Source: a phage. Taken from it: a stretch of DNA of 64,000 nucleotides. The DNA is taken from the sequence record PZ338877.1. The stretch is one strand, 5' to 3'. Shown one piece after another: positions 49,713-50,498 of the stretch (its first letter is position 1; each line of letters begins with the position of its first letter). The notes under the pieces were generated by a model. It was not told the DNA's origin. It worked only from the letters and a program-made list of their open reading frames with translations, and searched no databases. Made by a program: the position numbers and the translations under genes.

Positions 49713-50498
49713 TTAGTTCTTTGCGTCTAAGAAGGTAACTTCCGGTGAAGAGAAAATTCCCTCAACATCCTCATCAGTTCTTGCATAGATATATGTATCT
49801 GCATCACTGCCAAATGTTACTGCAATTCTGTGATTGCTCTTCGACAGGTGGGTAACTAGAGCGTTACTTAGAGACATCTTTTCAACCGGAGGGTTACTTT
49901 GATGTACCTTACCTTTTCTTCGTCTGAAGAGGGTAACTGCATCGTCAGTGAACACTACTACACCTGCAAAGTATTCTGGTTCACAGTAGTTCTTCCAACC
50001 TGAGCGTAACTTGTGGTACATCTCTCCTTCGTAGACATATAGATAGACATCTACACTCTTCATCACCTGATTAATGATAACGGTGACGGCTTGAGGGTCA
50101 AGTCCACCGATACCTGCACCAATCATAGGTAAACCAACTTTCTTCAACTGATTAACTTCACAGTATCTGTTAAGTTGTTTCAAAGATGACTCTAAAGCAC
50201 TGTATCGGGCATCTTTACCAGTCTTAAGCTGAGTGTAAAGGTTAGCTATACGGCCTTGTTCTAAACGTGCTACAGAGAAATTGCCTAGTAAATTTTCACA
50301 GGGTTTGTGGCCTATACCACCTGCATACAGATAAACTTCTGTATCGGTCTCATATGCTTTTGGGTAAAGTTTAGAAATCTTGTTAGCGATACCCGCACCC
50401 ATTAAGTTCATACAGTTGCAACCGTGACCAATGATATCAAACTTACCTTTATCAAATGCGGAGAAGATATCCCCATTGATGATTTTTACAATACCCAT
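49713..50498 (-). CDS. macro-domain-like protein with C-terminal extension
   Basis: 261 aa; N-terminal ~150 aa has NGDIFS...DIIGHGCNCMNLMGAGIANKI and VGLPMIGAGIGGLD motifs reminiscent of macro-domain GDIT/NAAN/GGGV and ISTGIYG blocks. Confidence 0.4.
   Translation of the reverse strand: MGIVKIINGDIFSAFDKGKFDIIGHGCNCMNLMGAGIANKISKLYPKAYETDTEVYLYAGGIGHKPCENLLGNFSVARLEQGRIANLYTQLKTGKDARYSALESSLKQLNRYCEVNQLKKVGLPMIGAGIGGLDPQAVTVIINQVMKSVDVYLYVYEGEMYHKLRSGWKNYCEPEYFAGVVVFTDDAVTLFRRRKGKVHQSNPPVEKMSLSNALVTHLSKSNHRIAVTFGSDADTYIYARTDEDVEGIFSSPEVTFLDAKN

Follow-up and report, generated by a model that had tools for sequence, protein, structure and literature searches.

The macro gene and its predicted fold

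The DNA examined here is a 64,000-nucleotide stretch of a phage genome (sequence record PZ338877.1; the window, analysed at its full length), and our subject is a macrodomain ("macro") gene on its minus strand and the relation of this gene to the NAD+ genes Adps and Namat, which make up NARP1 and lie about 8 kb upstream. The macro gene is a single open reading frame (ORF) for a protein of 261 amino acids (Table 1). The motifs quoted in an earlier, sequence-only reading of the window (NGDIFS, GHGCNC, GAGIANKI and LPMIGAGIGG) are all present in its translation, at residues 8-13, 24-29, 33-41 (as MGAGIANKI) and 123-132, respectively. Because the protein matches PHROG_335 ('phosphatase') with E=4e-113, matches Pfam Macro and is 99.2% identical in amino acids to mio_17 of Escherichia phage mio ('putative phosphatase'), the ORF is a real gene rather than a product of chance. 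By the same identity to mio_17, the window is a Felixounavirus genome (Ounavirinae; Felix O1-like). Megablast of the surrounding 2.5 kb matched 243 phage records, and tblastn with the protein matched 2,807, of which only 258 cover at least 80% of it. In the public records, more than 250 in number, the gene is called 'putative phosphatase', 'macro domain-containing protein' or 'O-acetyl-ADP-ribose deacetylase', all names transferred by homology. Felix O1-like phages such as Bas63 serve as both model and therapeutic phages, and their conserved macro protein has long carried the label 'phosphatase'; our literature search found no paper on a Felixounavirus or Ounavirinae macro protein and none linking Felixounavirus and DarTG.

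Table 1 Features of the macro gene and of the region up to NARP1 (window coordinates)
Feature	Coordinates	Strand	Basis or conservation
Complete macro gene (261 aa, two-domain)	49713..50498	minus	Single ORF, ATG start
Macrodomain, residues 1-157	50028..50498	minus	Pfam PF01661, PDB profile, AlphaFold2 and Foldseek
C-terminal orphan domain, residues 158-261 (predicted helix, six strands, helix)	49716..50027	minus	AlphaFold2 model
Asp10 (GD10IF), aligned with the Asp of TARG1 KGDLF	50469..50471	minus	MAFFT; also DarG SGDLL
H25-G-C-N28-C29 motif	50412..50426	minus	H25, N28, C29 invariant in family
Gly-rich loop 1 (phosphate-binding), M33-G-A-G-I-A38	50385..50402	minus	M33, G34, G36, A38 invariant or nearly
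N86-L-Y-T-Q90 strand and 8-residue loop LKTGKDAR (91-98)	50205..50243	minus	N86, L87, Y88, T89, Q90 invariant
Gly-rich loop 2, P124-M-I-G-A-G-I-G-G-L-D134 (Ile-type G-x-G-I-G-G)	50097..50129	minus	Conservation
Namat (annotated nicotinamide phosphoribosyltransferase), NARP1 enzyme 2	58685..60484	minus	Pfam NAPRTase, NAMPT_N
Adps (annotated ribose-phosphate pyrophosphokinase), NARP1 enzyme 1	60513..61409	minus	Pfam Pribosyltran, Pribosyl_synth
Terminator-like hairpin, 30 nt past macro stop codon	49643..49683	minus	Consensus scan: 17-bp stem, then T-run
Terminator-like hairpin, probable upstream end of ~3-kb macro unit	52728..52745	minus	Consensus scan
Terminator-like hairpin with T-run	54517..54540	minus	Consensus scan
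Terminator-like hairpin directly after Namat	58650..58673	minus	Consensus scan

We characterized the N-terminal part by profile searches and structure prediction. Pfam PF01661 (Macro) was matched at 33 bits (gathering cut-off, 22 bits) with E=6.6e-8, residues 25-141 spanning profile positions 2-117 of 118. Against the sequences of the PDB, a profile of 16 family members found TARG1/OARD1 at 3e-11, Mtb DarG at 3e-9, Taq DarG at 2e-7 and yeast Poa1p at 6e-5, the last over the first 60 residues only. The AlphaFold2 model computed on the 16-member alignment reached a mean pLDDT (predicted local distance difference test) of 86.2 and a pTM (predicted template-modelling score) of 0.86, and a Foldseek search of the PDB with this model returned 202 matches at E<=0.001. 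The top ones were all macrodomains, namely TARG1 (TM 0.77-0.82), DarG (0.72-0.77) and Poa1p (0.73), followed by those of alphaviruses and coronaviruses. By Pfam score, profile matches and model alike, residues 1-157 are a genuine macrodomain of the Poa1p/TARG1/DarG-like class, and we regard this fold assignment as secure. The macro fold read earlier from the motifs is thus borne out, the structure prediction that could have returned a non-macro fold having returned a macro fold. The proposed division of the protein holds as well, since the macrodomain of ~157 aa is followed by a part of ~104 aa that has no Pfam match and folds separately in the model.

In macrodomains, the aspartate of the N-terminal GD motif serves in adenine binding. 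Here, G9 is invariant and D10 at least 90% conserved in the family alignment, and in the second glycine-rich loop the invariant residues are P124, I126, G127, A128, G129, I130, G132, L133 and D134. Taken over 16 and 14 homologues, little or no variation is seen in the parts of the predicted ADP-ribose pocket (D10, M33-G-x-G36 and G127-x-G129-x-x-G132). The pocket is therefore intact as far as alignment and model can tell, and the protein is predicted to bind ADP-ribose.

Catalytic positions and the Tk.4-type signature

The closest experimentally studied homologue of the protein is Tk.4 of phage T2, with 34% identity and 54% positives over 155 aa (residues 3-157; BLASTP, E=3e-25). In a transposon screen of phage T4, tk.4 was the single gene needed for resistance to DarTG2, and a clean knockout was sensitive; the protein was named AdfM (anti-DarT factor, macrodomain) and proposed to take ADP-ribose off DNA (bioRxiv 10.1101/2025.11.20.689424). 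The DarG-like macrodomain protein gp104 of PhiKZ (PhiKZ AdfM), which keeps the catalytic lysine, strips DarT2-added ADP-ribose from an oligonucleotide in vitro (PMC13309987). A different activity is reported around aRES, a RES-domain defence that splits NAD+ into nicotinamide and ADP-ribose 1''-phosphate (ADPR-1''-P), a product unusable by NARP1: ~15% of NARP1 operons carry a Poa1p-like macro protein, Adpp, which converts ADPR-1''-P to ADP-ribose (ADPR) (bioRxiv 10.64898/2026.01.28.702374). The AdfM/DarTG2 and Adpp/aRES studies thereby supply two concrete, mutually distinguishable predictions for the Felix O1-type macro protein.

The sequence-only reading had taken GHGCNC for an atypical replacement of the NAAN motif. 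This does not hold, as HxCNC is the normal form in Poa1p, phage Tk.4, Adpp and related macrodomains: the block reads IHSCNC in Poa1p, AHGCNC in Tk.4 of T2/T4, AHQCNC in Adpp of Vibrio phage Gary and NTVNC in DarG. We compared the catalytic positions in a MAFFT alignment, for which the Mtb DarG sequence was checked to be identical to PDB 5M3I. The catalytic Asn22 of DarG aligns with Asn28 of the query, which is also the counterpart of Asn27 in Gary Adpp, while His24 of Gary Adpp corresponds to His25. The supplement of the aRES study names two Adpp mutant constructs, H24A and N27A, and in that study Adpp mutations led to loss of the anti-aRES counter-defence (bioRxiv 10.64898/2026.01.28.702374). 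The position of the catalytic lysine (DarG K80, TARG1 K84, PhiKZ AdfM K78) is occupied by the invariant Gln90 in the query, and by Gln in Tk.4 and Adpp too. In both HMMER and MAFFT alignments, K84 and D125 of TARG1 fall on Q90 and G131, with D134 three residues further on, so that by alignment the query is without a Lys84/Asp125 dyad of the TARG1 type.

Among the solved structures, DarG (PDB 5M3E, 5M3I) shares with the query, as PhiKZ gp104 does (PMC13309987), the macro fold, the conserved Asn and GGLD in loop 2. Human TARG1/OARD1 (PDB 4J5Q/R/S), the best solved match, shares the GD-aromatic N-terminal motif and the position of the H-x-x motif, but is a eukaryotic protein de-ADP-ribosylase built around the dyad absent here. 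Yeast Poa1p (PDB 6LFQ-6LFU), an ADP-ribose 1''-phosphate phosphatase and the source of the 'phosphatase' annotation, has the H-x-C-N-C motif and the fold in common with the query, but significant similarity is limited to the first ~60 residues, and its central loop and second Gly loop differ.

The match to TARG1 raises the alternative of a hydrolase for another ADP-ribose conjugate, such as mono-ADP-ribosylated protein or RNA produced by a further ADP-ribosyltransferase defence of the host, O-acetyl-ADP-ribose arising in sirtuin-type defences, or RNA-repair by-products connected with the nearby polynucleotide kinase, with the C-terminal domain picking the target. TARG1/OARD1 acts on protein-linked ADP-ribose and O-acetyl-ADP-ribose, some records carry the name 'O-acetyl-ADP-ribose deacetylase', macrodomains are promiscuous over such substrates (review PMC9503650), and the synteny with a PNKP-like gene 3 kb upstream is conserved. 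We nevertheless consider this alternative unlikely. The TARG1 catalytic residues are not conserved, and the annotation names were transferred by homology. Moreover, CmdTAC, an mRNA ADP-ribosyltransferase, defends strongly against T4 despite the macro protein of the same subtype in T4, and no phage ADP-ribosyltransferase, Tpt1/KptA or 2H phosphoesterase is found in the annotated 45-kb genome half inspected. Two related ideas were set aside on the same grounds: an antagonist of an ADP-ribosyltransferase of the phage itself, dropped as a leading idea because none is annotated in that genome half, and RNA de-ADP-ribosylation directed against CmdTAC, which is unlikely given that CmdTAC still blocks T4.

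We then asked which of the two studied phage types the query resembles. Pairwise similarity modestly favours Tk.4: in tblastn, the query scores 81-82 bits against T2 Tk.4, 53 bits against Gary Adpp and 50 bits against the macro protein of Vibrio phage K460 (from an Adps-macro-Namat operon), with Tk.4 and Gary Adpp scoring 76 bits against each other. The DarG models of PADLOC and NCBIfam were tried as a discriminator and set aside, as the query, Tk.4 and a NARP1-operon macro protein score about alike. A neighbour-joining tree (numpy, 200 bootstraps) of 83 non-redundant macro proteins, drawn from 80 IMG/VR loci, representatives of Table S1 of the aRES study and reference proteins, recovered a clade of the two-domain proteins with 70% bootstrap, but the next node had 0%. 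Since the tree alone decides nothing between the AdfM and Adpp types, we used instead a motif and loop signature derived in this analysis (HGCNC; NLYTQ and, after it, a loop of 8 residues; G-x-G-Ile-[GA]-G), which is not a published definition.

With this signature, the macro proteins fall into a short-loop and a long-loop type. In the short-loop type, to which the query belongs together with Tk.4, the T4-like relatives of Tk.4 and all two-domain homologues, exactly 8 residues separate the conserved Gln from the next conserved Tyr, and the second Gly loop reads G-x-G-Ile-[GA]-G. In 14 of 14 NARP1-adjacent macro proteins, this spacing is 12-15 residues, and the second loop contains Leu (or GCDRAGG). 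In the non-redundant set, 0 of 48 short-loop proteins are adjacent to NARP1 (Fisher's exact p=3e-7), although the NARP1-adjacent set was partly hand-picked and hence biased, and the unbiased loci alone give p=0.086. In a text count over the 129 published NARP1-adjacent macro proteins of Table S1, GAGIG, GAGIA, GCGIG and GCGIA occur in none, YGQY in 103 and GCGLAG in 85. By loop and motifs, the query is thus of the Tk.4 macro subtype. The loop adjoins the position of the catalytic residue in DarG and TARG1, and so plausibly shapes what attaches to the distal ribose. If experiments confirm it, the signature would be a simple rule for sorting ~2,800 phage macro proteins into two functional types.

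As a separate observation, many long-loop, Leu-type (Adpp-like) macro genes have no Adps or Namat within 10 kb (IMG/VR loci L042, L058, L067, L071-L073, L076-L078, L081 and L085); either these genomes carry NARP1 elsewhere, or macro proteins of this type can also function in its absence.

Predicted function and the NARP1 context

We propose that the protein is an AdfM-type de-ADP-ribosylase acting against DarT2-like DNA ADP-ribosylation, an ordinary counter-defence enzyme, and put the probability of this reading at roughly 45%. In such a scheme, a DarT2-type toxin of the host would attach ADP-ribose to thymidines of single-stranded phage DNA. The macrodomain, ADP-ribose-binding and probably hydrolytic, would remove it from the thymidines, presumably by a chemistry that works with Gln at the Lys position, so that phage replication and transcription would be restored and free ADP-ribose released. 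The C-terminal domain would more likely contribute by targeting, or by binding a variable host factor, than by catalysis. The reading is consistent with the likeness to T4/T2 Tk.4, which has in common with the query HGCNC, NLYTQ with the 8-residue loop, G-x-G-Ile-G and Gln at the DarG Lys position, and whose gene likewise lies among the early genes of virulent enterobacterial myoviruses. It differs in being a single domain of 155 aa, while the query carries an extra folded domain of 104 aa. The removal of DarT-type marks had been suggested from sequence; this idea has gained a precedent, as Tk.4/AdfM is needed by T4 against DarTG2, and stays a prediction for the query itself.

Several points weigh against this assignment. 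The chemistry cannot equal that of DarG, because the catalytic Lys is replaced by Gln90 in the query, as by Gln in Tk.4. The evidence on T4 AdfM is purely genetic, its biochemistry being inferred, and the activity of the Ounavirinae macro protein is a prediction. The His25 conserved here is needed in Adpp. The identity to Tk.4 is only 34%, the tree gives no resolved sister relationship, and the association between signature and NARP1 adjacency owes part of its significance to the hand-picked set. Finally, the phage encodes NARP1, and synteny over 8-10 kb would also fit a role in ADPR supply.

The last point leads to the principal alternative, a serious one, in which the protein would be a distal Adpp: an ADPR-1''-P phosphatase that acts after NAD+ phosphorolysis by aRES and feeds Adps and Namat 8 kb upstream, as a split 'NARP1-AP'. 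The NAD+ genes announced at that distance are indeed present as NAPRTase/NAMPT-family and PRPP-synthetase-like ORFs, and they correspond to NARP1, which was discovered in the congeneric Felixounavirus Bas63/JohannRWettstein, 94% identical to the window around the macro gene. Poa1p-like macro proteins of NARP1 operons are ADPR-1''-P phosphatases and defeat aRES. The query resembles Gary Adpp, a Poa1p-like phage macro protein, in the His and Asn of HxCNC, both mutated in the listed constructs and both invariant here, in the Gln of N-x-Y-x-Q and in being encoded by a phage with Adps and Namat. Moreover, aRES homologues occur in E. coli, Salmonella and Shigella (Table S2), and PHROG and GenBank both use the label 'phosphatase'. 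The aRES survey covered genes at most two positions from NARP1, and no phage of Escherichia, Salmonella or Shigella appears in its table (bioRxiv 10.64898/2026.01.28.702374), so that the Felix O1-type macro protein has never been considered in the NARP1-AP context. Additionally, the synteny of macro gene and NARP1 is conserved across Ounavirinae and also among more remote relatives. The gene order NARP1 - rIIA - rIIB - ... - PNKP-like - ... - macro is kept where the homologues are only 32-36% identical, and also in an Erwinia Kolesnikvirus; macro gene and NARP1 have thus occurred together for as long as the lineage has existed, which is compatible with either function.

Yet we regard a distal Adpp as doubtful. 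The query is closer to Tk.4 than to the Adpp proteins, and it has neither the 12-15-residue loop after Gln nor the G-x-G-Leu of the NARP1-adjacent proteins (G-C-G-Leu-A-G-G in the single-domain Gary Adpp), whose published set in turn has no Ile-type member. T4 has the same macro type, and no NARP1 genes are present in the 3.5-kb T2 region examined. The Kolesnikvirus orthologue carries Gln in place of the His required by Adpp. Unlike Gary Adpp, the query is encoded outside the NARP1 operon and beyond the two-gene range, with terminator-like hairpins in between. The earlier suggestion that the macro protein feeds NAD+ reconstitution thus has a precedent in Gary Adpp, but is weakened by the Tk.4-type signature, absent from the 129 NARP1-associated macro proteins.

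The distance from the macro gene is 8.2 kb to Namat and 10 kb to Adps, with 16-18 genes between. The macro gene closes a run of small ORFs ~3 kb long; its neighbours are small phage ORFs without a Pfam domain, and it lies among other counter-defence and early genes. Three strong GC-rich, terminator-like hairpins with T-runs (58650-58673, 54517-54540 and 52728-52745) cut the long leftward block into NARP1; rIIA-rIIB; lysin, polynucleotide kinase and an additional ORF; and a unit from the spanins to the macro gene. Several near-consensus sigma70 promoters stand directly after these hairpins (e.g. TTGACA-16-TATGAT at 58701-58674), and the record of phage AYO145A annotates a 'terminator' at the matching place 3' of its macro gene. 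Because at least three strong terminator-like hairpins intervene, the macro gene and NARP1 appear to form separate transcription units on the same strand, and their earlier placement in one block does not extend to a shared operon.

Downstream of the macro gene, the intergenic stretch 49462-49655 contains a direct repeat of ~22-34 nt (TTTTTCATTTTAGAATTGTGCAGGTA on the minus strand) in 3-4 copies, 39-84 nt apart, placed between the terminator-like hairpin of the macro gene and a strong sigma70-like promoter of the next gene block (TTGACT-17-TAATAT, 49285-49257). The rest of the 64-kb window has no copy (by chance, 0 are expected), and the copies could be regulatory or protein-binding sites. In relatives, HNH homing-endonuclease genes are inserted at variable places around NARP1 and near the macro gene (L004:884-1369, L004:11731-12267 and L001:338-658), which suggests mobile-intron or homing activity in this genome arm.

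The C-terminal domain and observations on public records

An uncharacterised C-terminal domain had been proposed to be fused to the macrodomain, and this is borne out. In the full model, residues 158-261 have pLDDT values of 80-92; modelled alone, they reach 79 with identical secondary structure. No sequence or structural relative was found in the libraries searched: the part has no Pfam match, PHROG_10351 is matched weakly (E=0.16), and both a profile search against PDB sequences and searches of each family member against Pfam gave noise only (E>=0.025). In a hidden Markov model search of 1.84 billion representative proteins, the domain occurred only fused to this macrodomain, and the two-domain architecture is conserved across Ounavirinae. 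Two apparently stand-alone candidates (P0032 and P0038) proved to be fragments, and the other matches were repeat-rich proteins (e.g. PQQ/beta-propeller-like) that we judged spurious. The macrodomain itself is a known kind of phage protein; the two-domain fusion is uncharacterised.

The domain changes faster than the macrodomain beside it. Where the macrodomains are 76-80% identical, the C-terminal parts are 47-55% identical, and where the macrodomains are 40-53% identical, only 13-20%. The charge is not conserved either, the isoelectric point (pI) ranging from 4.7 to 9.7, which argues against a generic DNA-binding or DNA-mimic role. Further away, Erwinia phage vEam_PM_6 (Kolesnikvirus) encodes a syntenic orthologue of 260 aa (L086:11998-12780), whose macrodomain reads GQGCNC, with Gln for the otherwise invariant His25. 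A comparison of the Felixounavirus profile with its C-terminal ~100 aa gave no similarity (hhalign probability 0.1). Because similarity is undetectable in this region despite an orthologous, syntenic gene, the C-terminal region is, judged by sequence, either replaced or fully diverged within one subfamily. Speculatively, an appendage that has a defined structure but changes fast, while its enzyme is conserved, points to an interaction surface. Well folded, without relatives in the libraries searched, found only fused to the enzyme and changing very fast, the domain is a candidate surface for contact with the host.

The layout of a macrodomain with a second domain is also that of DarG. However, the DarT-binding C-terminal domain of DarG is unrelated to that of the query. 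The DarG equivalog NCBIfam NF048014 aligns with the macro part only (model positions 4-153 of 338) at 48 bits, against a cut-off of 250, and the PADLOC DarG model aligns over positions 17-146 of 329. Together with the Gln in place of the Lys kept by DarG and PhiKZ AdfM, and with the absence of a darT gene near the macro gene in this virulent phage genome, the query is by sequence not a DarG antitoxin, whether judged by full-length model, catalytic Lys or darT adjacency.

The resemblance could nonetheless be convergent. In that case the macrodomain would erase the mark, and the hypervariable C-terminal domain would bind or target a variable host defence protein, as the DarG domain binds DarT; the protein would then be a phage-borne, two-domain analogue of an antitoxin and/or a distal third NARP1 enzyme, working on ADPR-1''-P or on released ADPR. 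We think this quite unlikely. If true, a single protein would link de-ADP-ribosylation to NAD+ reconstitution, and NARP1-AP would extend to the phages in which NARP1 was discovered; if the protein is simply an orthologue of AdfM, what remains is a routine upgrade of the annotation.

The C-terminal domain also bears on the least probable of the readings, a non-catalytic binder or sponge of an ADP-ribose-derived signal (His-ADPR of Thoeris, or cADPR-type), or a protein whose C-terminal domain blocks a defence protein stoichiometrically. The canonical catalytic Lys is absent, macrodomains are the His-ADPR receptors in type II Thoeris, a fast-evolving domain without conserved charge is what a protein-protein arms-race surface would look like, and DarG likewise pairs its macrodomain with a toxin-binding domain. 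Still, we hold this to be very improbable, as the invariant polar residues His25, Asn28, Thr89 and Gln90 around the distal-ribose site fit catalysis better, enzymatic activity is known for the tested homologues Adpp and PhiKZ AdfM, and no known sponge family is structurally similar.

The searches with the macro gene also brought up some irregular public records. In GU169904.1 (147 kb), filed as 'Staphylococcus phage SA1', part of the sequence matches the Felixounavirus macro region at 94% identity; the assembly is probably chimeric or contaminated. PV390658.1 (L087) is the record of Escherichia phage vB_EcoM_P54, placed there in Straboviridae, Tevenvirinae, Tequatrovirus; this taxonomy looks wrong, as the genome, at 88 kb, runs collinear with Felixounavirus and shows the macro, NARP1 and rII genes in the same layout. 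In the same genome, in the leftward arm of Felix O1-like genomes and outside the window, a gene for a 165-aa 'NAD synthetase' (L087:31886-32383) adjoins a MazG-like pyrophosphatase and may represent a further NAD-related function besides NARP1.

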